Shown in pieces: positions 11,042-42,664 of a stretch of 64,000 nt of DNA. The number at the start of each line of letters is the position of its first letter. Position 1 is the stretch's first letter. The DNA is taken from NCBI RefSeq assembly GCF_044324785.1, contig NZ_CP172127.1, one strand, 5' to 3'. The translations under genes were made by a program, and so were the position numbers. The notes beneath the pieces are model-generated. The model was not told the DNA's origin, ran no database searches, and saw only the letters and a list, made by a program, of their open reading frames with translations. Source of the DNA: Escherichia coli. GTDB taxonomy: Bacteria; Pseudomonadota; Gammaproteobacteria; Enterobacterales; Enterobacteriaceae.

Positions 11042-11052
11042 TGGTTATTCCC

Positions 11053-12276: not shown

Positions 12277-12291
12277 CTCATTAAACCTGGG

Positions 12292-12624: not shown

Positions 12625-12647
12625 TTATTCTCTCCTGGAGTTAAAAA

Positions 12648-14030: not shown

Positions 14031-14099
14031 AGGCTCATAATTTCTGGTGATTTTATGCCGCCAACTTTACTCGCCAGGCTCTGATTTTCCGGTGACAGG

Positions 14100-14121
14100 A
14101 AAATGACAAAATTGTCATTTT
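14100..14121. promoter_or_regulatory. CusR box in the cusC-cusR divergent control region
   Basis: The palindrome aaaatgacaaaattgtcatttt is read directly in the 156-bp intergenic region. It matches the published CusR-binding inverted repeat (AAAATGACAAnnTTGTCATTTT) as I recall it. Confidence 0.8.
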
Positions 14122-14186
14122 GCCAATAAGCGATTGCCATCTGATCCCGCTACTCTAGAATTGCCCGGGCAACATGCGGAGGAAAT

Positions 14187-14870: not shown

Positions 14871-16308
14871 GCCATTTCAGCGCCCGTTTTCGCTGGCAAC
14901 CCGCCTGACCTTTTTTATCAGCCTGGCCACCATCGCGGCGTTTTTCGCCTTTGCATGGATCATGATCCACTCAGTAAAAGTGCATTTTGCCGAGCAGGAT
15001 ATTAATGATTTAAAAGAGATTAGCGCCACACTCAAGCGCGTTCTTAATCATCCCGAAGAGACACAAGCCCGACGCTTAATGACGCTGGAAGATATCGTCA
15101 GTGGTTATTCCAACGTGTTGATTTCCCTGGCAGATAGCCACGGTAAAACGGTATATCACTCCCCCGGTGCGCCCGATATCCGCGAGTTTGCACGTGATGC
15201 CATACCCGATAAAGACGCGCGGGGCGGCGAGGTGTATCTCCTTTCCGGCCCGACAATGATGATGCCGGGCCACGGTCACGGGCATATGGAACACAGCAAC
15301 TGGCGGATGATTAACTTGCCGATTGGCCCGTTGGTGGACGGCAAACCGATTTATACGCTCTACATCGCGCTTTCGATCGATTTTCATCTTCATTACATAA
15401 ATGATTTGATGAATAAACTTATTATGACCGCATCGATCATCAGCATCCTGATCGTCTTTATCGTGCTATTGGCGGTACATAAAGGTCACGCGCCGATCCG
15501 CAGCGTCAGCCGTCAAATCCAGAATATCACCTCGAAAGATCTCGACGTTCGCCTTGACCCGCAGACCGTGCCGATTGAGCTGGAACAGTTGGTACTGTCG
15601 TTCAACCATATGATCGAGCGTATTGAGGATGTCTTTACCCGCCAGTCCAATTTCTCAGCGGATATCGCCCACGAAATTCGTACACCAATTACGAATCTCA
15701 TAACGCAAACGGAAATCGCCCTCAGCCAGTCGCGCAGCCAGAAGGAGCTGGAAGATGTGCTCTACTCTAATCTCGAAGAGCTGACGCGAATGGCGAAAAT
15801 GGTCAGCGATATGTTGTTTCTCGCCCAGGCCGATAACAACCAGTTAATCCCCGAAAAGAAAATGCTCAACCTGGCGGATGAAGTCGGCAAAGTGTTCGAT
15901 TTTTTCGAGGCGTTAGCGGAAGATCGCGGCGTGGAGTTGCGGTTTGTTGGTGACGAGTGTCAGGTTGCGGGCGATCCGCTGATGTTGCGTCGGGCGTTAA
16001 GCAACCTGCTTTCGAACGCCCTGCGTTATACGCCACCCGGAGAGGCAATTGTTGTGCGCTGCCAGACGGTCGATCACCAGGTGCAAGTTACCGTCGAAAA
16101 CCCCGGTACGCCCATTGCGCCCGAGCACTTACCGCGATTGTTTGACCGTTTCTATCGCGTTGACCCCTCCCGTCAGCGAAAAGGCGAAGGTAGCGGCATT
16201 GGTCTGGCGATAGTGAAATCGATAGTTGTCGCGCATAAAGGCACGGTTGCGGTAACGTCAGATGCGCGGGGGACAAGGTTTATGATCAAACTACCGGAGA
16301 AAGGTTAA
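14860..16308 (+). CDS. cusS: Copper/silver sensor histidine kinase CusS
   Basis: ATG at 14860 (overlapping the cusR stop by 11 nt) gives [19 protein letters not shown].... H-box [12 protein letters not shown] and C-terminal ATPase motifs are present. Confidence 0.94.
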
Positions 16309-17051
16309 TTAGTTAGTTCAAACTCAAAGAGTGATGTATCGCCTTCTGTTATTATTTATCAATAAAACAGGGAAGACCTTATTGGTCGTCTGAAATCGAA
16401 GGTTATTCATTTTCGGATATTTACGAGATATTTAGATATGCAATTTAATCAAATTCGTGTTTCTACCAATTGTAGAGCACAATGCTATTACTAAATTTTC
16501 ATCACTATAAAAGAATCGGCTATAATATAAAGCGCAGTCAGGCATCATTAATCTCTATATTATTCACACAATCTATTTATCAAGTGAATTTGATAAATTC
16601 CTAATTTAAAATATTCACTATTAAGCCAGCGTCTAACGACGTTAAGATGGCAATGTGCAGATCATGTTATCAGGGTGGGGCGGTAGCGTATATTCCTTAT
16701 ACAAACCATCATTCATTTCAATAATATTTATTGAGTTATTTATTATTGTGAATAAAAAGACATTACAAATATTGGTTTAACTTTGCATATCAGGTGTTTT
16801 TTTGTTACTCGATGTAATATACGAGCCTGTCCTTAATAACATCGTGAACCCGTCAGTTGAGTTTGTGATTATTTTGTTGACTCAACAGCCCCCCGTTTCT
16901 CTGAAGTAAAATCCCGGACAAAATTCTCACATAACCATGACACTTTTCTGATATTCCCCGGTAACGCCTGAAGCCGGCCCGCTTATCTCATTACCCGACA
17001 TGTTGTACATGCAATATGTGCGGATTATTATTCATTTTCACGGAGGTTGCT

Positions 17052-18953
17052 ATGTCAACCGGATTACGTTTCACACTGGAAGTGGACGGCCTGCCACCGG
17101 ACGCTTTTGCGGTGGTCTCCTTTCATCTCACCCAGTCACTCTCTTCACTTTTTTCCCTAGACCTTTCTCTGGTCAGTCAGCAGGTTCTCTCCCTTGAATT
17201 TGCGCAGGTGCTGGACAAAATGGCCTACCTGACGGTATGGCAGGGCGATGACGTACAGCGCCGGGTGAAAGGCGTGGTGACCTGGTTTGAACTCGGGGAG
17301 AACGACAAAAACCAGATGCTGTACAGCATGAAGGTGCGCCCGCCGCTGTGGCGGGCAGGACTGCGTCAGAACTTCCGTATCTTCCAGAACGAGGACATCA
17401 GAAGCATCCTCGGCACCATACTGCAGGAAAACGACGTCACGGAGTGGAGCCCGCTGTTCAGCGAGCCGCATCCTTCCCGTGAGTTTTGTGTCCAGTACGG
17501 TGAAACCGATTACGACTTTCTCTGCCGGATGGCAGCGGAGGAAGGCATCTTCTTCTATGAGGAGCACGCGCAGAAAAGTACCGACCAGAGTCTGGTGCTG
17601 TGCGACACGGTCCGCTATCTGCCGGAGTCCTTTGAAATCCCCTGGAACCCGAACACCCGTACCGAGGTGAGCACCCTCTGCATCAGCCAGTTCCGCTACA
17701 GCGCACAAATCCGTCCTTCCTCCGTGGTGACCAAAGACTACACCTTTAAACGCCCCGGCTGGGCCGGGCGTTTTGACCAGGAAGGCCAGCATCAGGATTA
17801 CCAGCGCACACAGTATGAAGTGTATGACTGGCCGGGGCGTTTCAAGAGCGCCCACGGGCAGAACTTTGCCCGCTGGCAGATGGACGGCTGGCGAAACAAC
17901 GCAGAAACCGCGCGGGGAATGAGCCGCTCGCCGGAGATATGGCCGGGACGGCGAATTGTGCTGACGGAGCATCCGCAGGCGAACCTGAACCGGGAATGGC
18001 AGGTGGTGGCGAGCGAACTGCACGGCGAACAGCCGCAGGCGGTGCCGGGACGGCGGGGCGCGGGGACGGCGCTGGAGAACCAGTTTGTGGTAATCCCGGC
18101 AGACCGGACGTGGCGGCCACAGCCGAAGCCAAAGCCGTCAGTGGACGGTCCACAGAGCGCCGTCGTGACGGGGCCTGCGGGAGAGGAAATCTTCTGCGAC
18201 GAGCATGGCCGGGTGCGGGTGAAATTCAACTGGGACCGCTATAACCCGGCCAACCAGGACAGCTCGTGCTGGATACGGGTGGCGCAGGCGTGGGCGGGGC
18301 CGGGATTTGGCAACCTGGCGATACCGCGCGTGGGTCAGGAGGTCATTGTGGACTTCCTCAACGGCGACCCAGACCAGCCCATCATCATGGGCCGCACCTA
18401 TCACCAGGAAAACCGCACCCCCGGCAGCCTGCCGGGAACGAAGACGCAGATGACCATCCGCTCCAAAACATATATGGGCAGCGGGTTTAACGAGCTGAAG
18501 TTTGACGATGCAACAGGGAAAGAACAGGTCTACATCCACGCGCAGAAGAACATGGATACCGAGGTGCTCAACGACCGTACCACCACCGTAAAACACGATC
18601 ACCGCGAAACCGTAAAAAATGACCAGACGGTCACGATCCAGGAAGGTAACCGCCTTCTTACGGTGGCAAAAGGCCACAAAATCACAGGCGTACTAAAAGG
18701 GTCCTTATCTGAGGATGTCTTTCAGGACAGAGGCACGATTGCCGGTTCAGTGCATGTTGACGCTGTAAACAATGGTGGCGAAGGCGACGGTATACAGGCT
18801 TATACGGCGATTAAGCAAATTATGCTGGCCGTGGAGGAAAGCAAAATTGCGCTGACGCCGGATGGCATTCAGCTACAGGTCGGGGAATCGACGGTAATCA
18901 GGCTGTCGAAGGATGGCATCACCATCGTGGGCAGTTCTGTTTTCATCAACTGA
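17052..18953 (+). CDS. vgrG: T6SS spike protein VgrG
   Basis: ATG at 17052, preceded by GGAGG at 17043. 633 aa with the classic VgrG gp27/gp5 core (...SCWIRVAQAWAGPGFGNLAIPRVGQEVIVDFLNGDPDQPIIMGRTYH...). Confidence 0.93.
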   Translation: MSTGLRFTLEVDGLPPDAFAVVSFHLTQSLSSLFSLDLSLVSQQVLSLEFAQVLDKMAYLTVWQGDDVQRRVKGVVTWFELGENDKNQMLYSMKVRPPLWRAGLRQNFRIFQNEDIRSILGTILQENDVTEWSPLFSEPHPSREFCVQYGETDYDFLCRMAAEEGIFFYEEHAQKSTDQSLVLCDTVRYLPESFEIPWNPNTRTEVSTLCISQFRYSAQIRPSSVVTKDYTFKRPGWAGRFDQEGQHQDYQRTQYEVYDWPGRFKSAHGQNFARWQMDGWRNNAETARGMSRSPEIWPGRRIVLTEHPQANLNREWQVVASELHGEQPQAVPGRRGAGTALENQFVVIPADRTWRPQPKPKPSVDGPQSAVVTGPAGEEIFCDEHGRVRVKFNWDRYNPANQDSSCWIRVAQAWAGPGFGNLAIPRVGQEVIVDFLNGDPDQPIIMGRTYHQENRTPGSLPGTKTQMTIRSKTYMGSGFNELKFDDATGKEQVYIHAQKNMDTEVLNDRTTTVKHDHRETVKNDQTVTIQEGNRLLTVAKGHKITGVLKGSLSEDVFQDRGTIAGSVHVDAVNNGGEGDGIQAYTAIKQIMLAVEESKIALTPDGIQLQVGESTVIRLSKDGITIVGSSVFIN

Positions 18954-18980
18954 TTCACTCAGATTAACAGGGAGTATTTT

Positions 18981-19442
18981 ATGCAGTTCACTTTTAATGA
19001 AGGTCATATTCAGCTGCCATCGCAATGGCAGGATCAGTCGATGCAGGTCCTGGTGTCCACAGATAACAGTGGCATCAACCTGGTCATTACCCGCGAACCC
19101 GTTCCACAGGGAACCCTGACACCAGAACTGTACCAGGAAACGCTGGCGCTGTACCAGGGCAAACTTGATGGGTACACCGAACATGCCTGCCGGGAAATCA
19201 CTCTGGCAGAGGCCCCGGCCTGGCTGCTGGATTATTCCTGGAACGGTCCGGAAGATGAAGGGAATCAGGGGCGGATTAGCCAGATAGCCGTATTCCAGCG
19301 GCGTGGAGATACGCTGCTGACCTTCACTTTCAGCACCTCCTTATCCCTGAAGAACAGTCAAAAGACGATGCTGCTGGAGGTGATAAAGAGCTTCACCCCG
19401 TTGCCACCGGAGAATGACATCCAAAAGGACCAGCCGCGCTGA
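18981..19442 (+). CDS. DUF1795/DcrB-fold Eag-type effector chaperone
   Basis: 153 aa. The N-terminus MQFTFNEGHIQLPSQWQDQSMQV is typical of Eag/DUF1795 proteins, and the gene sits between vgrG and a prePAAR effector. Confidence 0.8.
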   Translation: MQFTFNEGHIQLPSQWQDQSMQVLVSTDNSGINLVITREPVPQGTLTPELYQETLALYQGKLDGYTEHACREITLAEAPAWLLDYSWNGPEDEGNQGRISQIAVFQRRGDTLLTFTFSTSLSLKNSQKTMLLEVIKSFTPLPPENDIQKDQPR

Positions 19443-19461
19443 CATAAACGAGGGATAACAC

Positions 19462-22400
19462 ATGAGTGAAGGACCAGGCGGGCCACAGGGAGCGACCGCA
19501 GGCGGTACGCTGGCAATGCGAATGCTGTCACAGCAGGCGATGGTCGCCAGCCAGATGAAACGGGCAGCCAACGACAAAGCCATTGCACAGATGTTGGCAT
19601 CAAAAAAGTCTGGCCCCCCCGCCGCCAGGCTGGGCGATGAAATTCAGCACAAGAGTTTTTTGGGGGCGCTGGCAGGGGCCGTGCTGGGGGCGATAGTGAC
19701 CATCGCAGAAGGTTGCCTGATTATCGCCGCCTGTGCCACCGGCCCTTATGCGCTGGTTCTGGTGCCTGCGCTGATGTATGCCAGCTATAAGGCGAGTGAT
19801 TATGTGGAGGAGAAACAGAACCAGCTTGAATCCTGGATAAACAGCTTTTGTGACAAGGACGGGGCCATCAATACTGGTTCTAAAAATGTAAACATTAACG
19901 GAAAGCCCGCTGCCAGGGCCGCCGTCACACTTCCCCCTCCTCCCCTGACTGAAGCAATACCCTCTCCACCACAGGGGGAACCTTCATGGGGGGATATTGC
20001 CACTGACCTGCTTGAATCGGCAGCGGAAAAAGCAGTGCCACTGGCGAAGGCCTGGGGGAACGCTGTTATCACCCTGACGGACAGCAATGCCAGTTTTATG
20101 GATCGCTTATGTGCAGGCACATCGCTTCTGTTTCCCTACGGCCCGGTATTAATGGAGTTTGCCACCATGGTGGGCGGGCGTGGCGAAATCAAAAAAGACG
20201 TGGATTTCCCGGAAGCCGGTGAAGACACGGCGCTCTGCGACAAGGAGACTAAACCGCCGAGGATAGCCCAGGGCAGCAGCAACGTCTTCATCAACAATCA
20301 GCCTGCCGCGCGCAAGGGCGACAAACTGGAGTGCAGCGCGGCAATCGTGGAAGGTTCGCCGGACGTCTTTATTGGGGGTGAGCAGGTCACCTATCTGGAT
20401 ATCCAGCCGGAGTTCCCGCCGTGGCAGAGAATGATCCTGGGGGGAATAACGATAGCCAGCTATCTTCTGCCGCCAGCGGGACTGCTGGGAAAAATGAAGA
20501 ATCTGGCGAGACTCGGCAAACTGGGAAACCTGCTGGGGAAAAGCGGGAAGCTGCTGGGCGCAAAACTCGGCGCATTGCTGAGCAGAACAAAAAATGCCCT
20601 GAAAAATACGTATAACGTCCTGAAAAAGTTTATCAAAGATCCGGTTGACCCGGTAACCGGCGCGTACTGCGACGAACGTACCGACTTCACCCTGGGCCAG
20701 ACCCTCCCCCTCTCCTTCACCCGTTTCCACAGTTCTGTACTGCCACTGCATGGCCTGACGGGCGTGGGCTGGAGCGACTCCTGGAGCGAATACGCCTGGG
20801 TGCGTGAACAGGGAAACCGGGTGGATATCATCAGCCAGGGAGCCACGCTGTACTTTGCCTTCGACGGAGACAGTGATACGGCGGTTAACCCGTATCACGC
20901 CCAGTATATCCTGCGCCGCCGCGACGATTACCTGGAGCTGTTCGACCGTGATGCCCTGAGCAGCCGCTTCTTTTATGACGCCTTTCCGGGAATGCGCCTG
21001 CGCCACCAGGTGACCGGCGATACCAATGATGACCGCCTGGCACACAGCCCCGGTGACCGGATGTACATGCTGGGCGGAATGAGTGACACCGCCAGCAACC
21101 GCATCACGTTTGAGCGCGACAGTCAGTACCGGATCACGGGTGTCAGTCACACCGACGGGATCCGGCTTAAACTGACGTACCACGCCAGCGGCTACCTGAA
21201 AGCCATTCACCGCACGGATAACGGCATACAGACGCTGGCGACCTACGAACAGGACGAACGGGGACGGCTGACAGAAGCGGATGCGCGGCTGGACTACCAC
21301 CTGTTTTATGAGTACGACGATGCGGACCGGATCATCCGCTGGTCCGATAACGACCAGACGTGGAGCCGTTTCACCTACGATGCACAGGGCCGGTGCGTGA
21401 CCGTCACCGGGGCGGAAGGCTATTACAACGCCACGCTGGACTATGGTGACGGCTGCACTTCCGTGACGGACGGCAAGGGCATTCACCGTTATTACTATGA
21501 TCCTGACGGCAATATCCTGCGGGAAGACGCGCCGGACGGCAGTACCACCACGTATGAATGGGATGAATTCCATCACCTGCTGGCCCGCCACTCCCCTGCC
21601 GGACGGGTGGAGAAATTTGAATACAACGCCGTACACGGTCAGTTAAGCCGTTACACGGCGGCAGACGGCGCGGTGTGGCAGTACCGCTATGATGAGCGCG
21701 GCCTGCTCAGCAACATCACCGACCCTGCCGGGCAGACGTGGACACAGCAGTGTGATGAACGCGGCCTGCCGGTAAGTCTGGTGTCGCCACAGGGCGAAGA
21801 GACCCGGCTGGCGTACACGCCACAGGGGCTGCTGTCGGGGATATTCCGCCAGGATGAACGGCGTCTGGGCATAGAGTACGACCACCACAACCGGCCGGAA
21901 ACACTCACCGACGTGATGGGCCGTGAACACCACACCGAATACAGCGGTCACGACCTGCCGGTGAAGATGCGCGGCCCCGGCGGTCAGTCAGTGCGGTTAC
22001 AGTGGCAGCAGCACCATAAACTGAGTGGCCTTGAGCGGGCAGGAACCGGCGCGGAAGGATTCCGCTACGACCGCCACGGCAACCTGCTGGCGTACACGGA
22101 CGGTAACGGCGTTGTCTGGACAATGGAATACGGCCCGTTCGATTTGCCGGTGGCGCGAACGGACGGTGAAGGCCACCGCTGGCAGTACCGCTACGATAAA
22201 GACACGCTGCAACTGACAGAAGTCATCAATCCGCAGGGTGAGTCATACCGTTATATTCTCGACAACTGTGGCCGGGTGACGGAAGAGCGTGACTGGGGCG
22301 GCGTGGTCTGGCGTTACCGCTATGACGCCGATGGCCTGTGTACCGCCAGGGTTAACGGCCTGGAGGAAACTATCCTCTACAGCCGGGACGCCGCAGGCCG

Positions 22401-24324
22401 CCTGGCAGAAGTCATCACCCCGGAAGGCAAAACGCAGTATGCGTATGACAAATCCGGCAGGCTGACGGGTATCTTCAGCCCGGACGGCACATCACAGCGC
22501 ACCGGCTACGACGAACGCGGGCGGGTGAATGTCACCACTCAGGGCAGACGGGCCATTGAGTACCACCACCCCGATGAACACACCGTTATCCGCTGTATCC
22601 TGCCACCGGAAGATGAACGCGACAGACACCCCGGTGAATCCCTGCTGAAAACCACCTACCGCTACAACGCCGCCGGAGAACTGACGGAGGTTATCCTGCC
22701 GGGGGATGAGACGCTGACGTTCAGCCGTGATGAGGCAGGACGTGAAGTGCTCCGGCACAGTAACCGGGGTTTTGCCTGTGAACAGGGCTGGAATGCAGCC
22801 GGTCAGCTTACCAGCCAGCGCGCCGGATTTTTCCCGGCGGAAGCCACATGGGGCGGACTGCTCCCCTCACTGGTGCGGGAGTACCGTTACGACAGCGCGG
22901 GCAATGTGTCGGCTGTCACCAGCCGGGAAGACTACGGACGGGAAACACGGCGGGAGTACCGGCTGGACCGGAACGGCCAGGTCACAACGGTGACAGCCTC
23001 AGGCACCGGGCTGGGCTATGGCGAAGGCGACGAGACTTATGGCTATGACAGCTGCGGCTACCTGAAGGCGCAGTCTGCGGGCAGGCACCGGATAAGTGAA
23101 GAGACTGACCAGTATGCCGGAGGCCACCGGCTGAAACAGGCCGGAAACACGCAGTATGACTATGACGCCGCAGGCCGGATGGTCAGCCGCACCAGACACC
23201 GTGACGGCTACCGCCCGGAAACAGAGCGGTTCCGGTGGGACAGCCGGGACCAGCTGACCGGGTATTGCAGCGCACAGGGGGAGCAGTGGGAATACCGCCA
23301 CGACGCCAGCGGCAGGCGGACGGAAAAACGCTGCGACCGGAAGAAAATCCGTTTTACGTACCTGTGGGACGGCGACAATATTGCGGAAATCCGGGAATAC
23401 CGCGATGATAAACTGTACAGCGTACGGCACCTGGTGTTTAACGGCTTTGAGCTGGTAAGCCAGCAGTGCAGCCGGGTACGGCAGGCGCATCCGTCCGTGG
23501 CCCCGCAGTGGGTGACGCGAACGAATTATGCGGTGAGCGACCTGACAGGCCGCCCGCTGATGCTCTTTAACAGTGAAGGTAAAACCGTCTGGCGGCCGGG
23601 ACAGACCAGCCTGTGGGGGCTGGCACTCAGCCTGCCCGCAGACACCGGCTACCCGGACCCGCGCGGGGAACTGGACCCGGAAGCCCCCCCCGGCCTGCTG
23701 TATGCGGGACAGTGGCAGGATACGGAATCGGGGCTGTGCTATAACCGGTTCCGGTATTACGAGCCGGAAACCGGAATGTACCTGGTGAGTGATCCGCTGG
23801 GGTTGCAGGGAGGTGAGCAGACTTACCGGTATGTGCCTAATCCTTGTGGGTATGTTGATCCGCTGGGGCTGGCAAAAACCAGTATTATAAAATCTTCTAC
23901 AGGCAAAATCCCACAAGGGTTAACAAAAAGCGAATTTGAGATTTTTTCAAAAAAATTAAAGGATGTATTAGCCCGAGAGGGAATCTCGACAGAGAATGTG
24001 TTTGTACATGGCAGTAGAGCCAGAGGAGATGCTGTATCAGGTGTTTCAGATATTGATATAAAAGTGATCCTTAGTGATAAAGATTTTGGTGCCTTTGCAG
24101 CAAGACGTATTGCTGAGTCCTCAGGAAGGACTCGAAATTTAATCAGGAAGGCCGTTGCTAAAAATCAAAAAATAAATTCAAGAGGAATTTCTAAAACTTT
24201 TGAATCTACTGTATGGGATGAGGTTTTCACTACCTTACCAAAAGGTGAGTTTTCAAGCATTCAAGTTTCTGTTATGACCAAAACTTCACCATTCAACACT
24301 AATCCGAGTATTATATTACCATGA
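19462..24324 (+). CDS. prePAAR/PAAR-Rhs T6SS effector with C-terminal nucleotidyltransferase-like toxin domain
   Basis: 1620 codons. Features in order: prePAAR-like AARLGDEIQH (19621-19650), hydrophobic helices, PAAR motifs (GKPAARA; NQPAARKGD), numerous YD repeats, and the core end DPLGLQGGEQTYRYVPNPCGYVDPLGL (ends 23871). An AT-rich 150-codon CT follows, containing HGSRARGDAVSGVSDIDIKV. Confidence 0.93.
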   Translation: MSEGPGGPQGATAGGTLAMRMLSQQAMVASQMKRAANDKAIAQMLASKKSGPPAARLGDEIQHKSFLGALAGAVLGAIVTIAEGCLIIAACATGPYALVLVPALMYASYKASDYVEEKQNQLESWINSFCDKDGAINTGSKNVNINGKPAARAAVTLPPPPLTEAIPSPPQGEPSWGDIATDLLESAAEKAVPLAKAWGNAVITLTDSNASFMDRLCAGTSLLFPYGPVLMEFATMVGGRGEIKKDVDFPEAGEDTALCDKETKPPRIAQGSSNVFINNQPAARKGDKLECSAAIVEGSPDVFIGGEQVTYLDIQPEFPPWQRMILGGITIASYLLPPAGLLGKMKNLARLGKLGNLLGKSGKLLGAKLGALLSRTKNALKNTYNVLKKFIKDPVDPVTGAYCDERTDFTLGQTLPLSFTRFHSSVLPLHGLTGVGWSDSWSEYAWVREQGNRVDIISQGATLYFAFDGDSDTAVNPYHAQYILRRRDDYLELFDRDALSSRFFYDAFPGMRLRHQVTGDTNDDRLAHSPGDRMYMLGGMSDTASNRITFERDSQYRITGVSHTDGIRLKLTYHASGYLKAIHRTDNGIQTLATYEQDERGRLTEADARLDYHLFYEYDDADRIIRWSDNDQTWSRFTYDAQGRCVTVTGAEGYYNATLDYGDGCTSVTDGKGIHRYYYDPDGNILREDAPDGSTTTYEWDEFHHLLARHSPAGRVEKFEYNAVHGQLSRYTAADGAVWQYRYDERGLLSNITDPAGQTWTQQCDERGLPVSLVSPQGEETRLAYTPQGLLSGIFRQDERRLGIEYDHHNRPETLTDVMGREHHTEYSGHDLPVKMRGPGGQSVRLQWQQHHKLSGLERAGTGAEGFRYDRHGNLLAYTDGNGVVWTMEYGPFDLPVARTDGEGHRWQYRYDKDTLQLTEVINPQGESYRYILDNCGRVTEERDWGGVVWRYRYDADGLCTARVNGLEETILYSRDAAGRLAEVITPEGKTQYAYDKSGRLTGIFSPDGTSQRTGYDERGRVNVTTQGRRAIEYHHPDEHTVIRCILPPEDERDRHPGESLLKTTYRYNAAGELTEVILPGDETLTFSRDEAGREVLRHSNRGFACEQGWNAAGQLTSQRAGFFPAEATWGGLLPSLVREYRYDSAGNVSAVTSREDYGRETRREYRLDRNGQVTTVTASGTGLGYGEGDETYGYDSCGYLKAQSAGRHRISEETDQYAGGHRLKQAGNTQYDYDAAGRMVSRTRHRDGYRPETERFRWDSRDQLTGYCSAQGEQWEYRHDASGRRTEKRCDRKKIRFTYLWDGDNIAEIREYRDDKLYSVRHLVFNGFELVSQQCSRVRQAHPSVAPQWVTRTNYAVSDLTGRPLMLFNSEGKTVWRPGQTSLWGLALSLPADTGYPDPRGELDPEAPPGLLYAGQWQDTESGLCYNRFRYYEPETGMYLVSDPLGLQGGEQTYRYVPNPCGYVDPLGLAKTSIIKSSTGKIPQGLTKSEFEIFSKKLKDVLAREGISTENVFVHGSRARGDAVSGVSDIDIKVILSDKDFGAFAARRIAESSGRTRNLIRKAVAKNQKINSRGISKTFESTVWDEVFTTLPKGEFSSIQVSVMTKTSPFNTNPSIILP
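21559..23844 (+). repeat. rhs core direct repeat, copy A (within the full-length rhs)
   Basis: Aligns with 27298-29583 at a constant offset of 5739 nt. The first ~80 nt are diverged and the rest is near-identical by eye. Confidence 0.9.
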
Positions 24325-24671
24325 AGAAAAAAGATATTAGATTTGCAATATCCATTAACTCCAACTTAAGTAAGATAGAATTAATGGAAAAAATTAAAAA
24401 TATAATCCCAGGGCTTATTGAAATAACTTCCAGTGCATTAAGAGAAGAAAAAAACATGGTAGTTATTGAAGAAAATGATCTTTATGACCCTATAAAAGCA
24501 GAGGGAGCTGATGGATGGATGTATTATAAATTCATATTATCCATATTCCCATTAAAGGGAGTGGAAACAACATTAGAATATCAACGGGAATTATCTTTTC
24601 TTTTCTTAAAGAAAATAAAAGATGCGGGCCTGTTGGGTGAACTTATATGCGAGGATGATTTTCATGACTGA
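24321..24671 (+). CDS. Presumptive cognate immunity protein of the Rhs NTase-like CT
   Basis: 116-codon AT-rich ORF whose ATG overlaps the rhs stop (ATGA), the usual Rhs CT/immunity arrangement. I recognise no motif in it. Confidence 0.7.
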   Translation: MKKKDIRFAISINSNLSKIELMEKIKNIIPGLIEITSSALREEKNMVVIEENDLYDPIKAEGADGWMYYKFILSIFPLKGVETTLEYQRELSFLFLKKIKDAGLLGELICEDDFHD

Positions 24672-24730
24672 TGACCTCTACATATATCCTCAGTTCGTGG
24701 CTGGTATTACATGATCTGACAGGGAAAGAT

Positions 24731-24880
24731 CGTGGCGAAATCAAAAAAGACGTGGATTTCCCGGAAGCCGGTGAGGACACGGCGCTCTGCGACAAGGAGA
24801 ACAAACCACCGAGGATAGCCCAGGGCAGCAGCAACGTCTTCATCAACAATCAGCCTGCCGCACGCAAAGGGGACAAACTG
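24731..24880 (+). pseudogene. 150-bp fragment of an rhs PAAR region
   Basis: Matches 20179-20328 of the main rhs (RGEIKKDVDFPEAGEDTALCDKE[N/T]KPPRIAQGSSNVFINNQPAARKGDKL). It is truncated on both sides and abuts the ISEc1 left end. Confidence 0.85.
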
Positions 24881-26171
24881 CAGGGAAAGATCACGTAACG
24901 CTGCTTTTTTGTACTAAATAATTCGCATTTTATGTTTAAAAATTGAGATATTCCTCATTACCTAAAGCTGTTTTTTATTGCTTATACATGATCAAATACT
25001 CCTTACATAATTAAGGAGAACAAAATGGAACTTAAAAAATTGATGGAACATATTTCTGTTATCCCCGATTACAGACAAGCATGGAAAGTAGAACATAAAT
25101 TGTCAGATATTCTACTGTTGACTATTTGCGCCGTCATTTGTGGTGCAGAAGGCTGGGAAGATATAGAGGATTTTGGTGAAACACATCTCGATTTTTTGAA
25201 GCAATATGGTGATTTTGAAAATGGTATTCCTGTCCACGATACCATTGCCAGAGTTGTATCCTGTATCAGTCCTGCAAAATTTCACGAGTGCTTTATTAAC
25301 TGGATGCGAGATTGCCATACTTCAGATGATAAAGACGTTATTGCAATCGATGGAAAAACACTCCGGCATTCTTATGACAAGAGTCGCCGCAGGGGAGCGA
25401 TTCATGTCATTAGTGCGTTCTCAACAATGCACAGTCTGGTCATCGGACAGATCAGGACGGATGAGAAATCTAATGAGATTACAGCTATCCCAGAACTTCT
25501 TAACATGCTGGATATTAAAGGAAAAATCATCACAACTGATGCGATGGGTTGCCAGAAAGATATTGCAGAGAAGATACAAAAACAGGGCGGTGATTATTTA
25601 TTCGCTGTAAAAGGAAATCAGGGGCGGCTTAATAAAGCCTTTGAGGAAAAATTCCCACTGAAAGAATTAAATAATCCAGAGCATGATAGTTACGCAATTA
25701 GTGAAAAGAGTCACGGCAGAGAAGAAATCCGACTTCATATTGTTTGCGATGTCCCTGATGAACTTATTGATTTCACGTTTGAATGGAAAGGGCTGAAGAA
25801 ATTATGCATAGCAGTCTCCTTTCGCTCAATAATAGCAGAGCAAAAGAAAGAGCCAGAAATGACGGTCAGATATTATATCAGTTCTGCTGATTTAAACACA
25901 GAAAAGTTCGCCACAGCAATCCGAAACCACTGGCACGTGGAGAATAAGCTGCACTGGCGTCTGGATGTGGTAATGAATGAAGACGACTGCAAAATAAGAA
26001 GAGGAAATGCAGCAGAATTATTTTCAGGGATACGGCACATCGCTATTAATATTTTGACGAATGATAAGGTATTCAAGGCAGGGTTAAGACGTAAGATACG
26101 AAAAGCAGCTATGGACAGAAACTACATGGCGTCAGTCCTTGCGGGGAGCGGGCTTTCGTAATCTTTCCCTG
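24881..26171 (+). mobile_element. ISEc1 (H-repeat, ISAs1 family), copy 1
   Basis: Imperfect terminal inverted repeats: cagggaaagatcacgtaacg on the left, and ...cgtaatctttccctg on the right. The element encloses the H-repeat-associated transposase ORF. Confidence 0.88.
25025..26161 (+). CDS. ISAs1-family (H-repeat-associated, YhhI-like) transposase
   Basis: 378 aa, [37 protein letters not shown]..., recognisable as the E. coli Rhs-associated H-rpt protein. AAGGAG SD upstream. Confidence 0.9.
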
Positions 26172-26396
26172 GACATGACGATTATTGTTCGTTCAAATCC
26201 GAGTAAAGCCGCTATTCTTGAAGAATTTTTACATGGTACACAAGAGAAACTAGGAATAGCTGAAAAATTAGGACGTTATGGACTAGGGAGTGCAGAAACG
26301 CACGTTAAGGATTTCATGATAAGACACAAAAAAATGCTTGGGTTATCTGATGAGGATGTAGCAATACTCAAAATATTGAAAGACAAGGGGTTGTGA
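26172..26396 (+). pseudogene. C-terminal stub of an orphan polymorphic-toxin CT, truncated by ISEc1
   Basis: The open frame starts exactly at the IS right end (…DMTIIVRSNPSKAAILEEFLHGTQEKLG…KDKGL). Its stop overlaps the next ATG (TGATG), as in toxin/immunity pairs. Confidence 0.55.
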
Positions 26397-26683
26397 TGAA
26401 TATAATTCTGCCGATAAAAGATATATTTATTATTGCGGGAAACATAGTTTTTAGCGTTTTATACAATGAACATATTGAGTTCCCATGCCGCTGCCAATTA
26501 CTATCTTCAAATTCTGAAGTTATGCAAGAGTTATATATTGAAAAAGAGTTATTTATTAAACGCACTACAGAAAATGATTGTCGTGCTTTAGTGTTAAGAG
26601 GAACATTGGAATACTTATTTGATGAAATTATTGCTGGCGATTGTGCATTGGCCTTATTACAAAAAGAAATAAAAAAAGATTAA
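26396..26683 (+). CDS. Presumptive orphan immunity protein 2
   Basis: 95-codon AT-rich ORF overlapping the upstream stub's stop by 1 nt. No recognisable motif. Confidence 0.55.
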   Translation: MNIILPIKDIFIIAGNIVFSVLYNEHIEFPCRCQLLSSNSEVMQELYIEKELFIKRTTENDCRALVLRGTLEYLFDEIIAGDCALALLQKEIKKD

Positions 26684-26699
26684 TCCAATATGTAGAACT

Positions 26700-26905
26700 G
26701 GACAATACCCATCTTTTAACAATGAACTTCGTAATTTTTATCTTAGAAATAATGCTACATTATATGAGGTATATCATGAAGTAATTCATGCCAAGCAATT
26801 TGCGAAAATATTTCTATCGGAGGTGCTGATGCACCATCTAATATGAGACTTATGGATATAATGACACATACAACTCATCATAAATATTACAGGCCTTGGG
26901 AATGA
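26700..26905 (+). pseudogene. Decayed orphan toxin CT with HExxH (zinc-metallopeptidase-like) motif
   Basis: One frame reads ...NELRNFYLRNNATLYEVYHEVIHAKQFAKI... and stops at 26844. Another frame, open from 26780, continues ...GGADAPSNMRLMDIMTHTTHHKYYRPWE* to 26905. This is consistent with a 1-nt frameshift near the A-run at ~26804. There is no rhs core upstream. Confidence 0.6.
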
Positions 26906-27264
26906 TAAATAAAATAGTGAAAAAAATGTTGGTTTCATATAGCCCTAAGAAACCGGAGTCTAGGGGCGGGGATTTTGTTATTCCGTTGTTTTTTAATGAG
27001 AAAGTTTCTTTTTTTAGCATAAAAAGTGGCAAGCCAGTGCGATATGGTCTTATGGTATTTACAGGGAAAGTAATTACCATAGATGATATTCTTAGTAAAG
27101 TTCGTTTTCCTGATGTTATGAATGAGCAAAATATTCAACCGTTAATTGACTTTATTAATAACATTAGCGATTTTAAAATAGGGGATGTTATTGAAATTGA
27201 TGATAATGGTAAATTGAAAGTTGTGCCAAAATCAGCAGGACACCCTGTGAGTAAATTGCCATGA
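26902..27264 (+). CDS. Presumptive orphan immunity protein 3
   Basis: 120-codon ORF from the ATG at 26902, overlapping the stub stop as ATGA. AT-rich, with no recognisable motif. Confidence 0.55.
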   Translation: MINKIVKKMLVSYSPKKPESRGGDFVIPLFFNEKVSFFSIKSGKPVRYGLMVFTGKVITIDDILSKVRFPDVMNEQNIQPLIDFINNISDFKIGDVIEIDDNGKLKVVPKSAGHPVSKLP

Positions 27265-27297
27265 TACTTAAGGGGCCTGATTTTCTGTTTTTGCCAG

Positions 27298-29583
27298 TGG
27301 GACGAATACCATCACCTGCTGGCGAGGCTGTCTCCGGCAGGACGGCTGGAAAAGTTTGACTATCATCTGACACTCGGTCAGTTAAGCCGTTACACGGCGG
27401 CAGACGGCGCGGAGTGGCAGTACCGCTATGATGAGCGCGGCCTGCTCAGCAACATCACCGACCCTGCCGGGCAGACGTGGACACAGCAGTGCGATGAACG
27501 CGGCCTGCCGGTGAGTCTGGTGTCGCCACAGGGCGAAGAGACCCGGCTGGCGTACACCGCTCAGGGGCTGCTGTCGGGGATATTCCGCCAGGATGAACGG
27601 CGTCTGGGCATAGAGTACGACCACCACAACCGGCCGGAAACACTCACCGACGTGATGGGCCGTGAACACCACACCGAATACAGCGGTCACGACCTGCCGG
27701 TGAAGATGCGCGGCCCCGGCGGTCAGTCAGTGCGCTTACAGTGGCAGCAGCACCATAAACTGAGCGGCATTGAACGTGCTGGAACCGGCGCGGAAGGATT
27801 TCGCTATGACCGCCACGGCAACCTGCTGGCCTGGACGGACGGCAACGGTGTTGACTGGACAATGGAATACGGCCCGTTTGATTTGCCGGTGGCGCGAACG
27901 GACGGTGAAGGCCACCGCTGGCAGTACCGCTACGATAAAGACACGCTGCAACTGACAGAAGTCATCAATCCGCAGGGCGAGTCATACCGTTATATTCTCG
28001 ACAACTGTGGGCGGGTGACGGAAGAGCATGACTGGGGCGGCGTGGTCTGGCGTTACCGCTATGACGCCGATGGTCTGTGTACCGCCAGGGTTAACGGCCT
28101 GGAGGAAACCATCCTCTACAGCCGGGACGCCGCAGGCCGCCTGGCAGAAGTCATCACCCCGGAAGGGAAAACGCAGTATGCGTATGACAAATCCGGCAGG
28201 CTGACGGGTATCTTCAGCCCGGACGGCACATCACAGCGCACCGGCTACGACGAACGCGGGCGGGTGAATGTCACCACTCAGGGCCGACGGGCCATTGAAT
28301 ACCACCACCCCGATGAACACACCGTCATCCGCTGTATCCTGCCACCGGAAGATGAACGCGACAGACACCCCGGTGAATCCCTGCTGAAAACCACCTACCG
28401 CTACAACGCCGCCGGAGAACTGACGGAGGTTATCCTGCCGGGGGATGAGACGCTGACGTTCAGCCGTGATGAGGCAGGACGTGAAGTGCTCCGGCACAGT
28501 AACCGGGGTTTTGCCTGTGAACAGGGCTGGAATGCAGCCGGTCAGCTTACCAGCCAGCGCGCCGGATTTTTCCCGGCGGAAGCCACATGGGGCGGACTGC
28601 TCCCCTCACTGGTGCGGGAGTACCGTTACGACAGCGCGGGCAATGTGTCGGCTGTCACCAGCCGGGAAGACTACGGACGGGAAACACGGCGGGAGTACCG
28701 GCTGGACCGGAACGGCCAGGTCACAACGGTGACAGCCTCAGGCACCGGGCTGGGCTATGGCGAAGGCGACGAGACTTATGGCTATGACAGCTGCGGCTAC
28801 CTGAAGGCGCAGTCTGCGGGCAGGCACCGGATAAGTGAAGAGACTGACCAGTATGCCGGAGGCCACCGGCTGAAACAGGCCGGAAACACGCAGTATGACT
28901 ATGACGCCGCAGGCCGGATGGTCAGCCGCACCAGACACCGTGACGGCTACCGCCCGGAAACAGAGCGGTTCCGGTGGGACAGCCGGGACCAGCTGACCGG
29001 GTATTGCAGCGCACAGGGGGAGCAGTGGGAATACCGCCACGACGCCAGCGGCAGGCGGACGGAAAAACGCTGCGACCGGAAGAAAATCCGTTTTACGTAC
29101 CTGTGGGACGGCGACAATATTGCGGAAATCCGGGAATACCGCGATGATAAACTGTACAGCGTACGGCACCTGGTGTTTAACGGCTTTGAGCTGGTAAGCC
29201 AGCAGTGCAGCCGGGTACGGCAGGCGCATCCGTCCGTGGCCCCGCAGTGGGTGACGCGAACGAATTATGCGGTGAGCGACCTGACAGGCCGCCCGCTGAT
29301 GCTCTTTAACAGTGAAGGTAAAACCGTCTGGCGGCCGGGACAGACCAGCCTGTGGGGGCTGGCACTCAGCCTGCCCGCAGACACCGACTACCCGGACCCG
29401 CGCGGGGAGCTGGACCCGGAAGCCGACCCCGGCCTGCTGTATGCAGGACAGTGGCAGGATACGGAATCAGGGCTGTGCTATAACCGGTTCCGGTACTACG
29501 AGCCGGAAACCGGAATGTACCTGGTGAGTGATCCGCTGGGGTTGCAGGGGGGTGAGCAGACTTACCGGTATGTGCCGAATCCT
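27298..29583 (+). repeat. rhs core direct repeat, copy B (orphan)
   Basis: See copy A. The offset is 5739 nt, and homology ends at the codon after the shared ...VPNP. Confidence 0.9.
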
Positions 29584-30051
29584 TTAAGATATAAAGATTT
29601 CTATGGGCTTAGTAAGAGTTCAATAATAACGAGAGGAAAGAATGCTGGTCATGGCTATGCAGCCAGCGTTACACCTGGAGGCAAAGGTACGGTGTTGGCT
29701 GGTCACGGAGGATCAAAATTTGGCGATAAAATGATTATACCAGAAGGCGTATCGATAACGATGCCGAGAGATGGTATTAAAATATCAGATATGACTGGAA
29801 AATTACTGGAATCTGGTAATGTGGATGATATAATTAAAGCTGCAAGTAATAATCCTCGTGTAGCTAGCGATCTTGAAGGTTGGGTTACTTATTTGCCCGG
29901 CACTGAAATCCCTGATTATATTTTAAAACCACCCACCAATCTTAACATACTGGAAAATTCAGTAACGGTGAACACTTCAACTTATTTATCTCAAATGGTA
30001 AATGCTGGTCAAGGTAATGTAATCTGGGCTGCATGCACCGAATTTTTTTAA
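27298..30051 (+). pseudogene. Orphan 5'-truncated rhs core with an intact alternative CT toxin domain
   Basis: The frame is open stop-to-stop from 27265 with no plausible start or N-terminal PAAR region. 27298-29583 parallels the main rhs core. It diverges after ...YRYVPNP into a distinct AT-rich 155-codon CT (LRYKDFYGLSKSSIITRGKNAGHGY...VIWAACTEFF). Confidence 0.85.
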
Positions 30052-30065
30052 CGCGGGGTAATCGT

Positions 30066-30548
30066 ATGTATTTTAAAGATGATACTGACTATACATATTT
30101 CCTTCCTAATGAATATTTTTTACACGGGGTGAAAAATGTGGGCTGGATAGACAGAGAACACCCCTTCACAAAAGGGATTAGTGACGCTGAATTTATTGAA
30201 AAGTTAAAAGCAATAATTCTAACAGAGAATGAAGCAACTTGTTTTTCAGTTAATAAAATAAGAGGATTTCACAAATGTAATTTTTGCAATAGTGAAATGA
30301 TAACAATAACCGATGGAAGAAAAAAAGGATACCTTGGCATGAGTGAAATATGGATTCCATCCATCCACCATAATGAGTATTACGCGTTTCCTTCATTAAT
30401 TTTCCATTATATAACATCTCACATGTATAGACCACCAGAGGACTTTATTGTATCTGTTTTAAACTTGAATTTAAGCGAGAGTTTTTGCGCTCAAAACATA
30501 TATGACAATAAAATTAAGGAATTAAAAATAGACTTCTGGTTTCGTTAA
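30066..30548 (+). CDS. Presumptive immunity protein of the orphan Rhs CT
   Basis: 160-codon AT-rich ORF from the ATG at 30066, 15 nt after the orphan rhs stop. It contains HKCNFCNSE. The annotated start at 30033 would overlap the toxin end and was not used. Confidence 0.6.
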   Translation: MYFKDDTDYTYFLPNEYFLHGVKNVGWIDREHPFTKGISDAEFIEKLKAIILTENEATCFSVNKIRGFHKCNFCNSEMITITDGRKKGYLGMSEIWIPSIHHNEYYAFPSLIFHYITSHMYRPPEDFIVSVLNLNLSESFCAQNIYDNKIKELKIDFWFR

Positions 30549-30568
30549 AGCTGGTAATTTAACTTATC

Positions 30569-30665
30569 GGGAATACCGCTATGATGGCAGTTTCAGACGG
30601 ACGGAGAAATGCTGTCAGCAAAAAGACTTCCGCTTCGCGTATCTGTGGGGCATGGGGATAATTTA
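30569..30665 (+). pseudogene. Diverged rhs core scrap
   Basis: Reads (W)EYRYDGSFRRTEKCCQQKDFRFAYLWG, paralleling WEYRHDASGRRTEKRCDRKKIRFTYLWDG of the main rhs (around 23286-23385) but clearly more diverged. Confidence 0.6.
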
Positions 30666-30732
30666 TCTTCATCAATTGATATATTGATTAATGGCAAGGA
30701 GGCCATTGAAATTCCGTAAGGCCAACTTGATA

Positions 30733-30914
30733 TGACGCCTGGCACACAGCCCCGGTGACCGGATGTATATGCTGGGCGGGATGAGCGACACCGCCAGCAA
30801 CCGCATCACGTTTGAGCGCGACAGCCAGTACCGGATCACGGGTGTCAGTCACACCGACGGGATCCGGCTTAAACTGACGTACCACGCCAGCGGCTACCTG
30901 AAAGCCATTCACCG
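30733..30914 (+). pseudogene. rhs core fragment (N-proximal part of the core) truncated by an IS end
   Basis: Matches 21036-21217 of the main rhs (LAHSPGDRMYMLGGMSDTASNRITFERDSQYRITGVSHTDGIRLKLTYHASGYLKAIHR). It ends at an H-repeat left terminus. Confidence 0.8.
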
Positions 30915-31023
30915 CAGGGAAAGATCACGTAACGCTGCTTTTTTGTACTAAGCAATTCGCATTTTATGTTCAGTATTTGAGATACTCCTTATAACACAAA
31001 CCTGTTTTTCATAGCTTATATAT
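30915..31023 (+). mobile_element. Solo, diverged H-repeat/ISEc1 left-end fragment
   Basis: Starts with cagggaaagatcacgtaacgctgcttttttgtacta, like the IS left end, then diverges from the canonical copy. It is cut off by the next complete copy. Confidence 0.7.
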
Positions 31024-32315
31024 GTAGGAAAAGATCACGTAACGCTCCTTTTTTGTACTAAATAATTCGCATTTTATGTTTAAAAATTGAGATATTCCTC
31101 ATTACCTAAAGCTGTTTTTTATTGCTTACACATGATCAAATACTCCTTACATAATTAAGGATAACAAAATGTAACTTAAAAAATTGATGGAACATATTTC
31201 TATTATCCCCGATTACAGACAAGCCTGGAAAGTGGAACATAAATTATCGGATATTCTACTGTTGACTATTTGTGCCGTTATTTCGGGTGCAGAAGGTTGG
31301 GAAGATATAGAGGATTTTGGGGAAACACATCTCGATTTTTTAAAACAATATGGTGATTTTGAAAATGGTATTCCTGTTCACGATACCATTGCCAGAGTTG
31401 TATCCTGTATCAGCCCTGCAAAATTTCACGAGTGCTTTATTAACTGGATGCGAGATTGCCATACTTCAGATGATAAAGACGTCATCGCAATTGATGGAAA
31501 AACACTCCGGCATTCTTATGGCAAGAGTCGCCGCAGGGGAGCGATTCATGTCATTAGTGCGTTCTCAACAATGCACAGTCTGGTCATCGGACAGATCAGG
31601 ACGGATGAGAAATCCAATGAAATTACAGCTATCCCTGAACTTCTTAACATGCTGGATATTAAAGGAAAAATCATCACAACTGATGCAATGGGTTGCCAGA
31701 AAGATATTGCAGAGAAGATACAAAAACAGGGCGGTGATTATTTATTCGCTGTAAAAGGAAATCAGGGGCGGCTTAATAAAGCCTTTGAGGAAAAATTTCC
31801 ACTGAAAGAATTAAATAATCCAGAGCATGACAGTTACGCCATTAGTGAAAAGAGTCACGACAGAGAAGAAATCCGTCTTCATATTGTTTGCGATGTCCCT
31901 GATGAACTTATTGATTTCACGTTTGAATGGAAAGGACTGAAGAAATTATGCGTGGCAGTCTCCTTTCGGTCAATAATAGCAGAACAAAAGAAAGAGCCAG
32001 AAATGACGGTCAGATATTATATCAGTTCTGCTGATTTAACCGCAGAGAAGTTCGCCACAGCAATCCGAAACCACTGGCACGTGGAGAATAAGCTGCACTG
32101 GCGTCTGGACGTGGTAATGAATGAAGACGACTGCAAAATAAGAAGAGGAAATGCAGCAGAATTATTTTCAGGGATACGGCACATCGCTATTAATATTTTG
32201 ACGAATGATAAGGTATTCAAGGCAGGGTTAAGACGTAAGATGCGAAAAGCAGCCATGGACAGAAACTATCTCGCGTCAGTCCTTGCTGGGAGCGGGCTTT
32301 CGTAATCTTTCCCTG
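31024..32315 (+). mobile_element. ISEc1 (H-repeat, ISAs1 family), copy 2
   Basis: The left end taggaaaagatcacgtaacg has 2 mismatches to copy 1. The right end ...cgtaatctttccctg finishes at 32315. Same length class as copy 1. Confidence 0.85.
31187..32305 (+). CDS. ISAs1-family transposase, copy 2, N-terminally compromised
   Basis: The canonical start has ATG-TAA (31169-31174) where copy 1 has ATG-GAA, and the SD is AAGGAT rather than AAGGAG. The frame is otherwise intact from the internal ATG at 31187 ([15 protein letters not shown]...). Confidence 0.6.
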
Positions 32316-32502
32316 CGTTAACCGCCCCTCCTTGACACCACGCTTTTGTCTACATTCTACGCAAACGGCAACTTTTATAACCAGTGTAAAAATAACGTGC
32401 CGCAATAGTCATACCTATTAATGGTAAAAAGCTGTCACAATTCATAAAAAACCTTAATATACGCCACCCTAAACATAACCAGCGTTAATGTAAGGTTTTT
32501 GT

Positions 32503-42586: not shown

Positions 42587-42664
42587 TTTATTACCCCCTA
42601 CATTCGTGAATAACTGAAGCTAACTGCGAGCCTACGGGCTCGCAGTGAAAACTCTGGAGTGATT

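Follow-up and report, generated by a model that had tools for sequence, protein, structure and literature searches.

In this work, we analysed a 64,000-nucleotide stretch of Escherichia coli DNA (contig NZ_CP172127.1 of assembly GCF_044324785.1; hereafter the window), in which about 16.1 kb separate cusS from nfrB according to the open reading frame (ORF) map and profile searches. The segment at ~16282-32360 is a known locus, rhs position 4, already catalogued by Jackson et al. in 2009 (BMC Genomics 10:584, PMC2935791), and it very probably represents this strain's position 4 allele, an accessory type VI secretion system (T6SS) module of the vgrG-eagR-PAAR-rhs-immunity type. Of the 11 conserved E. 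coli rhs positions listed by Jackson et al., position 4 lies between nfrB and cusS; no other belongs to clade IV, and these authors used it as the worked example of C-terminal displacement in seven strains (Fig. 5 in PMC2935791). The window shows the same site and the same arrangement, rhs being followed by GC-poor dissociated tips on core fragments, and its allele is distinguished by two rare tips (one of nucleotidyltransferase, NTase, type and one of Stv type), a diverged leader and two copies of the insertion sequence (IS) ISEc1. With 57-63% GC in vgrG and the rhs core but 35-40% in the tips and orphan genes, the composition follows the classical Rhs pattern of a GC-rich core with AT-rich tips.

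Gene content, motifs and intactness were observed directly in the window. The effector cassette consists of the following parts:

17052-18953, plus strand: vgrG, T6SS spike protein, 633 aa (TIGR03361, 628 bits)
18981-19442, plus strand: Eag-type chaperone (DcrB/DUF1795), 153 aa (PF08786, E=6e-28)
19462-24324, plus strand: PAAR-Rhs protein, 1620 aa, uninterrupted (Pfam and NCBIfam)
19462-23871, plus strand: carrier part of the PAAR-Rhs protein (Pfam, NCBIfam, motif and hydropathy scan)
23872-24324, plus strand: C-terminal tip of Rhs (tip 1), aa 1471-1620, a putative minimal Pol-beta NTase (PF01909, E=1.8e-6; PF18765, E=2.3e-5)
24321-24671, plus strand: putative cognate immunity gene, 116 aa (from its position; 4-nt overlap with the rhs stop codon)

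The vgrG start corresponds to Met13 of an ORF that opens at 17016, and the encoded protein comprises the gp27/gp5 hub, OB and beta-helix parts (Phage_GPD, PF05954; Phage_base_V, PF04717; Gp5_trimer_C, PF22178). The Rhs protein bears, at aa 54-63, the prePAAR motif AARLGDEIQH, followed by a hydrophobic stretch (aa ~64-106) that was read as two transmembrane helices although the scan shows no two separate helices, a PAAR domain at aa 261-310 (PF05488, E=6.5e-16), and a shell made of DUF6531 and YD/RHS repeats (TIGR01643, TIGR03696, PF05593). Its core ends with DPLGL at 1444 and a second DPLGL at 1466-1470, after which the variable tip begins. When compared to the O157:H7 island at the same site, VgrG is 96.2% identical, Eag 99.3%, and the Rhs core 93.8% (aa 1-1477), and the tip differs. 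The identical 1620-aa Rhs was found on at least 8 NCBI draft contigs, adjacent to cusS every time, and these contigs are 99.2-99.8% identical to the window. Assemblies GCA_034489925.1 and GCA_042601735.1 combine this Rhs with an unchanged layout. By its domain content and order, the cassette is an auxiliary T6SS VgrG-Eag-PAAR-Rhs effector module. A preliminary description of this DNA, made from the sequence, had reported a complete spike-chaperone-effector cassette, and indeed no interruption was found in vgrG, eag, the 4.9-kb rhs or the immunity gene; the genes and the order it gave between cusS and nfrB, vgrG-eag-rhs followed by an orphan array and two IS copies, were also confirmed. It had also described the cusS and nfrB flanks as contiguous in K-12, where the spacer is in fact only 149 bp.

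The organization of the cassette closely resembles that of systems described before. According to the accounts of Ma et al. 2017 (Environ Microbiol 19:345) given in PMC6730261 and bioRxiv 10.1101/2024.03.05.583533, the vgrGO1-eagR-rhs-ct-cti islands mediate T6SS-dependent killing, and the delivery needs both vgrGO1 and eagR. The window shares with these islands the order of vgrG, a DUF1795 eagR gene, PAAR-Rhs with a variable C-terminal tip (CT), immunity gene and further pairs downstream, as well as a remnant of an MPTase4 (Rhs-CT1-type) tip; its NTase tip is absent from the CT1-CT10 types in the review PMC6730261. In Shiga toxin-producing E. coli O22:H8, an island with deaminase, AHH and MPTase4 tips has been described (bioRxiv 10.1101/2024.03.05.583533). 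As the AHH and MPTase4 tip types were found at cusS-nfrB in A17 and O157, we infer from these shared types that the published VgrGO1 islands sit at the same site.

The Rhs protein also has the traits of class I prePAAR effectors with Eag chaperones, which were reportedly described by Ahmad et al. in eLife in 2020: the AARxxDxxxH motif, an N-terminal hydrophobic region, a PAAR domain and a DUF1795 gene immediately upstream. It differs in that the match to the prePAAR_I Pfam hidden Markov model falls just below the threshold (22.8 bits, the cut-off being 25). The GC-rich core, the AT-rich tips and the ISAs1-family (H-rpt/ISEc1) elements are shared with the classical K-12 Rhs elements, whose H-rpt (ISAs1-family) insertions are said to have been described by Hill and colleagues in the 1990s. 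Unlike RhsA-E, the cusS-nfrB island is absent from K-12, and RhsA-E are not known to have an intact vgrG-eag next to them. In the classification of Jackson et al., K-12 RhsA-E belong to clade I (PMC2935791).

Which secretion machinery could serve this cassette was addressed with the closest complete genome, that of E. coli N3, which matches the window at 98.9% identity across 39 kb and whose island is laid out in the same way. N3 bears a full T6SS cluster next to yafV, about 355 kb from the cus locus, with hcp, vgrG, an rhs core gene, tssB, tssC, tssE, tssF, tssG, tagH, tssJ, tssK, tssL (annotated as icmH/dotU), tssH, vasI, tssA and tssM; its gene order appears to be that of the E. coli T6SS-2 type. 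The VgrG of this cluster matches that of the island at 91% identity across residues 1-539, with only the C-terminal ~100 residues diverging, as expected for alternative spikes of one machine. The 64-kb window itself contains no T6SS core genes, since tblastn with all 16 proteins of the N3 cluster matched vgrG only, and the rest of it is collinear with annotated genomes (fepA to pheP and cus to the left of the island; nfr, ompT and a lambdoid prophage to the right). Nor does a T6SS adjoin the island in the loci inspected (N3, O157 MB41-1 and 042, and the right half of A17). Both the absence of tss and hcp genes from the window and the reliance on a T6SS encoded elsewhere had been anticipated in the preliminary description; the former was borne out by tblastn, and the latter is supported by the N3 cluster. 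Given this cluster and the VgrG match, the island most probably depends on, and is served by, a distant T6SS, whose presence in the source strain would follow from N3.

The part of the cassette that sets it apart is tip 1. Its signature, HGSRARGDAVSGVSDIDI, comprises G1517, S1518, D1530 and D1532, the two aspartates being those placed so far among the three carboxylates expected of the superfamily, and the corresponding residues of the tip domain (G47, S48, D60 and D62) are invariant across the homologue alignment. The PF01909 match exceeds the family cut-off, and a search of PDB sequences gave marginal NTase matches only (E=0.035). All population counts below refer to 5,426 complete E. coli genomes. 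Tip 1 and its immunity gene are present as a whole in one of them, N3, and 138 genomes keep the immunity gene with a truncated 3′ end of the toxin devoid of the catalytic motif. While a word-seeded search with tip 1 returned four homologues only, a profile search of 1.84 billion representatives gave 254 at E<=1e-3. Among the 150 of these 254 matches that were listed, the match lies almost always at the extreme C-terminus, in proteins of up to ~2,700 aa. Eight matches were scanned for carrier domains: one is CdiA-like (TPS and haemagglutinin repeats), one has DUF4280 and PT-HINT, one RHS repeats and one LysM, and four have no carrier domain. A close homologue lies in an orphan rhs array beside hcp and vasL on a metagenome contig. 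The C-terminal position in several polymorphic-toxin carriers is the signature of a polymorphic-toxin domain.

The 116-aa ORF that overlaps the rhs stop codon has no Pfam match and six homologues, one of which (P0008, 111 aa) has a longest contig of the same length (90,692) as the NTase-tip homologue P0001; directly downstream of that tip, on contig L086, there is an ORF of 111 aa. Tip 1 resembles the MNT-type NTases (MntA of HEPN-MNT modules) and MenT-like toxins in the hG[GS]x9-13DhDh signature and, as far as predicted, the small alpha/beta fold. The difference is that MNT is an antitoxin, whereas tip 1 is a putative secreted polymorphic-toxin tip with an unrelated putative immunity protein; MenT/DUF1814 has no detectable relation to tip 1. 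A text search of Zhang et al. 2012 gave nucleotidyltransferase toxins of the RelA/SpoT type only, and no paper describing or naming the tip-1 domain as a toxin was found in the literature searched. It is possible, if rather doubtful, that tip 1 represents an uncharacterised family of secreted minimal nucleotidyltransferase toxins, borne by Rhs, CdiA-like and PAAR-like/PT-HINT proteins of many bacteria, which kill by nucleotidylation and have their own new immunity family. Some novelty of the island may be seen here, limited to the rare NTase tip and its immunity partner, which is a reasonable candidate for biochemistry.

Downstream of the cassette, the island contains an array of displaced tips, orphan immunity genes and IS copies:

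24731-24880, plus strand: 5′ (PAAR-region) fragment of rhs, a copy of 20179-20331 at 95% (repeat search, ORF translation)
24881-26171, plus strand: ISAs1-family/ISEc1-like copy 1, 1291 bp (NF033564, 417 bits)
26169-26683, plus strand: a pair of small orphan ORFs, likely immunity genes left without their toxin tip (match to A17)
26712-26810, plus strand: 33-aa remnant of a zincin-like metallopeptidase (MPTase4-type) tip (tblastn with O157/A17 MPTase toxins, 82%; N3 annotation)
26902-27264, plus strand: orphan ORF downstream of the MPTase4 remnant
27298-30051, plus strand: orphan rhs without PAAR or N-terminus (repeat search, blastn)
30033-30548, plus strand: DUF7919 ORF, putative immunity gene for orphan tip 2 (PF25535, E=4e-34)
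30736-30914, plus strand: internal rhs fragment, a copy of 21034-21218 (repeat search)
30915-31024, plus strand: 110-bp solo left end of an older ISAs1-family element (sequence reading)
31025-32315, plus strand: ISEc1 copy 2, 1291 bp (NF033564, 412 bits)

The 5′ rhs fragment is cut off by IS copy 1, which has its transposase at 25025-26161 and the inverted repeats CAGGGAAAGATCACG.../...CGTAATCTTTCCCTG and which also truncates the first of the two small orphan ORFs; these ORFs are 100% and 97.9% identical to two ORFs 3′ of an rhs tip in A17. The core of the orphan rhs (27298-29584) repeats 2.3 kb of the resident gene (21559-23845) at 95-98% identity. Its tip 2 (~29599-30051) contains a Pfam Stv domain (PF21527, E=7e-13), has few homologues, and gave nothing meaningful in a search of PDB sequences; it is complete in a single genome, and its DUF7919 partner is kept without the toxin in 57. 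The internal rhs fragment abuts the solo left IS end. The two full IS copies are 96% identical, lie in the same orientation and have matching inverted repeats, and no target duplication was found at either of them. ISEc1 beside nfrB is annotated in most island-bearing genomes.

Two sister assemblies with the identical Rhs show what such copies do. One (L091, GCA_043676975.1) is an exact IS-by-IS recombinant lacking the orphan array 26172-31024, and in the other (L094, GCA_019012885.1) a deletion runs from inside IS copy 1 into nfrA (window 25752-34619), so that the remainder of the island and the whole of nfrB, the phage N4 receptor/exopolysaccharide synthase gene, are gone. These deletions indicate that the IS copies erode the island and did not deliver it.

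To define the boundaries, the window was aligned with K-12, 042, O157 and A17. The features concerned are:

14860-16308, plus strand: cusS, 482 aa (NCBIfam NF007345, 983 bits)
32316-32360, plus strand: 45-bp right-end island remnant (CGTTAACCGCCCC...CATTCTACG; from this alignment)
32503-34740: nfrB

To the left of the island, cusCFBA on the minus strand is followed by cusR on the plus strand and then by cusS; to the right, nfrB is followed by nfrA, ybcH and envY. The left junction was found within cusS: the homology to the empty site runs to ...GGGACAAGGTTT, which ends at 16281, and breaks at 16282-16297. In K-12 and other empty-site genomes CusS ends with GTRFVITLPA*, the K-12 protein having 480 aa, whereas the last 9 codons of the window cusS (16282-16308) encode an island-associated tail, MIKLPEKG*. 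Related tails occur in other occupied alleles (VIVLPERG* in O157, VIVLPERE* in 042, VIKLPERE* in Escherichia sp. MOD1-EC7003), and all occupied alleles have a CusS tail of the form xIxLPExx* and a common right junction. Judged from these alignments, the island brought or created a new 3′ end of cusS. On the right side, the outer (right) inverted repeat of ISEc1 stops exactly at position 32315, and the empty-site sequence (CAAACGGCAAC...) picks up again at 32361 only. The 45-bp segment in between also ends the islands of 042, O157 and A17 on the right, where about 69 more bases lie between it and the IS.

The preliminary description had placed the left boundary directly after the cusS stop, which is wrong by about 27 bp, since the break lies inside the gene; its doubt as to whether the last CusS residues are native was well founded, the tail not being of the K-12/outgroup type. 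Its right boundary at 32315 is exact as an IS end, but the island continues for another 45 bp. A target duplication at the cusS-nfrB junctions, also raised there, is not seen, as the junction alignment shows no flanking direct repeat. There are no tRNA genes in the whole 64-kb window and no integrase among its ORFs or in the N3 annotation, and an integrase-type genomic island was rejected for the lack of tRNA, integrase and direct repeats.

Between the cusS stop and vgrG lies the leader:

16309-17051, plus strand: AT-rich non-coding vgrG leader, 743 bp, ~41-45% GC (from composition)

This leader allele is only ~80-84% identical to the common E. coli allele: in the junction search it showed ~84% identity to most genomes and 98.5% to DETEC-S792, and its identity to the O157 leader is 79.7%. 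It is rare, with about 147 records at 95-99% identity. A terminator scan of the leader found none, and an Rfam scan of the whole window gave no match inside the island, the only matches being two sok copies and IS009 elsewhere. A part of the leader (16574-16985) is 89.8% identical to a segment beside an RHS gene in K-12 derivatives (records at ~1.45-1.62 Mb), suggesting that vgrG/rhs loci share a conserved upstream element even where the island is absent.

The site is polymorphic in the species. The K-12-type empty junction is contiguous in 2,328 of the 5,426 genomes, and the cusS 3′ end, the leader and the vgrG 5′ end are contiguous in 2,640; at least 80% of the whole 17-kb query is covered in 635 genomes. 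Two of the remaining genomes were inspected. In H60, nfrB abuts cusA. Strain 042 has a degenerate island at the same site (locus L003, 8479-20142), a fully decayed version without vgrG or rhs, which contains an HNH/EndoVII toxin fragment, WD40-like and SUKH-3 immunity-type genes, a PAAR-like gene and ISAs1/IS1/ISEc1 copies. Outside E. coli, the site is empty in four of the five Escherichia representatives (E. ruysiae, E. whittamii, Escherichia sp. E1V33 and SCPM-O-B-8794). All empty-site representatives, the E. coli one included, have cusS, about 155 bp and then nfrB, with a CusS tail of the VITLPA/VITLPV type. The fifth non-coli representative, MOD1-EC7003 (L006), has the occupied-type tail.

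The neighbouring cus operon of the window (7898-16280) is itself unusually distant from those of all the complete E. coli genomes compared: from cusC to cusS it is 98.0% identical to N3, 97.3-97.4% to O157 and 042, and 96.7% to K-12. Its identity to Escherichia sp. E1V33 is 97.0%, which makes it about as far from this strain as from the complete E. coli compared. This suggests either recombination or an uncommon lineage.

According to the reading we prefer, the island VgrG would form a spike on a T6SS encoded elsewhere, in N3 the cluster next to yafV, and the PAAR domain of Rhs would cap this spike. The Eag chaperone would shield the hydrophobic N-terminal segment (read as two transmembrane helices) of this class-I prePAAR effector, and the Rhs shell would enclose the 150-aa tip, which self-cleavage after DPLGL would set free. 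Once in the recipient, the tip would presumably nucleotidylate an essential target, and the product of the overlapping 116-aa gene would protect kin cells. The downstream graveyard of tips and orphan immunity genes would have been built by C-terminal displacement and then cut by the ISEc1 copies driving deletions. Secretion, toxicity and immunity enter this scheme as predictions.

Several points weigh against this scheme. A T6SS in the source genome is deduced from a relative that is ~1% different, and tssA of this relative carries one of the many frameshift flags of the N3 assembly. In enterohaemorrhagic E. coli (EHEC), a study that mentions two orphan vgrG islands did not detect their products in vitro, VgrG1 and RhsF of an orphan vgrG island remaining undetected even after promoter swapping, and the T6SS was repressed by H-NS (PMC13141884). 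A promoter scan of the AT-rich leader gave 6 sites vs. 4.1 expected, i.e., chance level. The AlphaFold2 model of tip 1 is mediocre (predicted local distance difference test score, pLDDT, 70), and the nearest Foldseek matches to it, MNT antitoxins and other NTases, are weak (best E=0.046), with nothing at E<=0.001, so that the assignment of an NTase fold rests mainly on the sequence motif. The 116-aa ORF, finally, is a putative immunity gene by position and co-occurrence only.

The leader and the EHEC data would equally fit a cassette that is an inert or silenced relic, kept mainly for its immunity genes against neighbours, as would the lack of T6SS core genes in the window, the retention of the immunity genes alone for both tips in 138 and 57 genomes, and the loss of island parts through IS copies in sister strains. 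We nevertheless regard such a relic as unlikely, because vgrG, eag, rhs and the immunity gene are uninterrupted, the catalytic motif has been conserved, at least 8 assemblies maintain the very same 1620-aa protein, and the nearest complete genome has a compatible T6SS; moreover, homologous vgrGO1 islands kill in a T6SS-dependent manner in other E. coli, as far as the account in PMC6730261 goes.

As to the origin of the island, the preliminary description had implied a recent, strain-specific horizontal insertion into a K-12-like cusS-nfrB spacer. The absence from K-12, the departure of the GC content from that of the flanks, and the rare leader allele would agree with this, but the framing does not hold, as the island is not peculiar to this strain: vgrG follows cusS straight away in 2,640 genomes, the proteins share 94-99% identity with their O157 island counterparts, and the site has been listed since 2009. 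There is also no tRNA, integrase or target duplication, and the CusS tail and right junction common to the occupied alleles point to one old event, so a recent arrival is highly improbable. The alternative offered there, an island ancestral to E. coli and lost in K-12, gains something from the fact that the site is occupied or has remnants in more than half of the complete genomes, including O157:H7, O111, enterotoxigenic E. coli and enteroaggregative E. coli 042, and from the occupied-type CusS tail of the non-coli MOD1-EC7003. It is nonetheless unsupported and has, in our estimate, a small chance of being correct: four Escherichia outgroups are empty, with essentially the K-12 junction and the tail of the 480-aa CusS, and no T6SS adjoins the island in the loci inspected. 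A loss by deletion in K-12 was rejected because the outgroups share its junction and CusS tail; deletion cannot recreate the VITLPA tail, so that K-12 could have lost the island only by recombining in an empty allele.

The distal half alone (24881-32315) might be thought a composite transposon that brought in the orphan modules as cargo between two direct ISEc1 copies, which are both 1291 bp long, lie in one orientation and show 96% identity. We rejected this because direct repeats are missing at both copies, and we consider it very improbable also on other grounds: the truncated rhs fragments abutting both left ends indicate that the copies inserted into rhs DNA already in place and that deletions came later, the 95-98% identity between the orphan core and the resident one is what in-situ displacement predicts, and ISEc1 is found beside nfrB in islands whose orphan genes are quite different. 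Most economically, the island, which segregates as a presence/absence polymorphism, would go back to a single old insertion, or to a recombinational import with a crossover inside cusS, and K-12 would carry the ancestral empty allele.

Some other features of the window are given here for completeness. At ~1186-2157 there are two tandem copies of the hokE/sok toxin-antitoxin pair (Rfam sok at 1431-1585 and 1933-2089), mirrored in N3 and O157. After envY, N3 and 042 have tRNA-Arg and fimZ, whereas the window (39625-64000) has ompT, a stress cluster and a lambdoid prophage (tail fibre, J, tape measure, capsid and portal genes); this part is collinear with A17. The stress cluster, at 42404-44617 between ompT and the prophage tail genes, comprises a general stress protein, two ferritin-like ORFs and a manganese catalase (43727-44617), and the Rfam IS009 match lies at 44777-44975. 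The manganese catalase KatN is listed among the T6SS-secreted effectors of EHEC in the review PMC6730261.

Taken together, the locus as such is of little importance: it is an accessory vgrG-rhs module of the textbook kind, and about half of E. coli genomes have it. It does serve as a clean and dated case of a long-standing presence/absence polymorphism whose insertion appears to have rewritten the 3′ end of the neighbouring sensor-kinase gene cusS, and the sister assemblies show the ISEc1 copies deleting the orphan array and, once, nfrB too. The island itself is ordinary, but if tip 1 were indeed a nucleotidylating toxin, for which tRNA 3′ ends or an essential protein would be the candidate targets, it would represent a new enzymatic class among the effectors of T6SS and contact-dependent inhibition systems.

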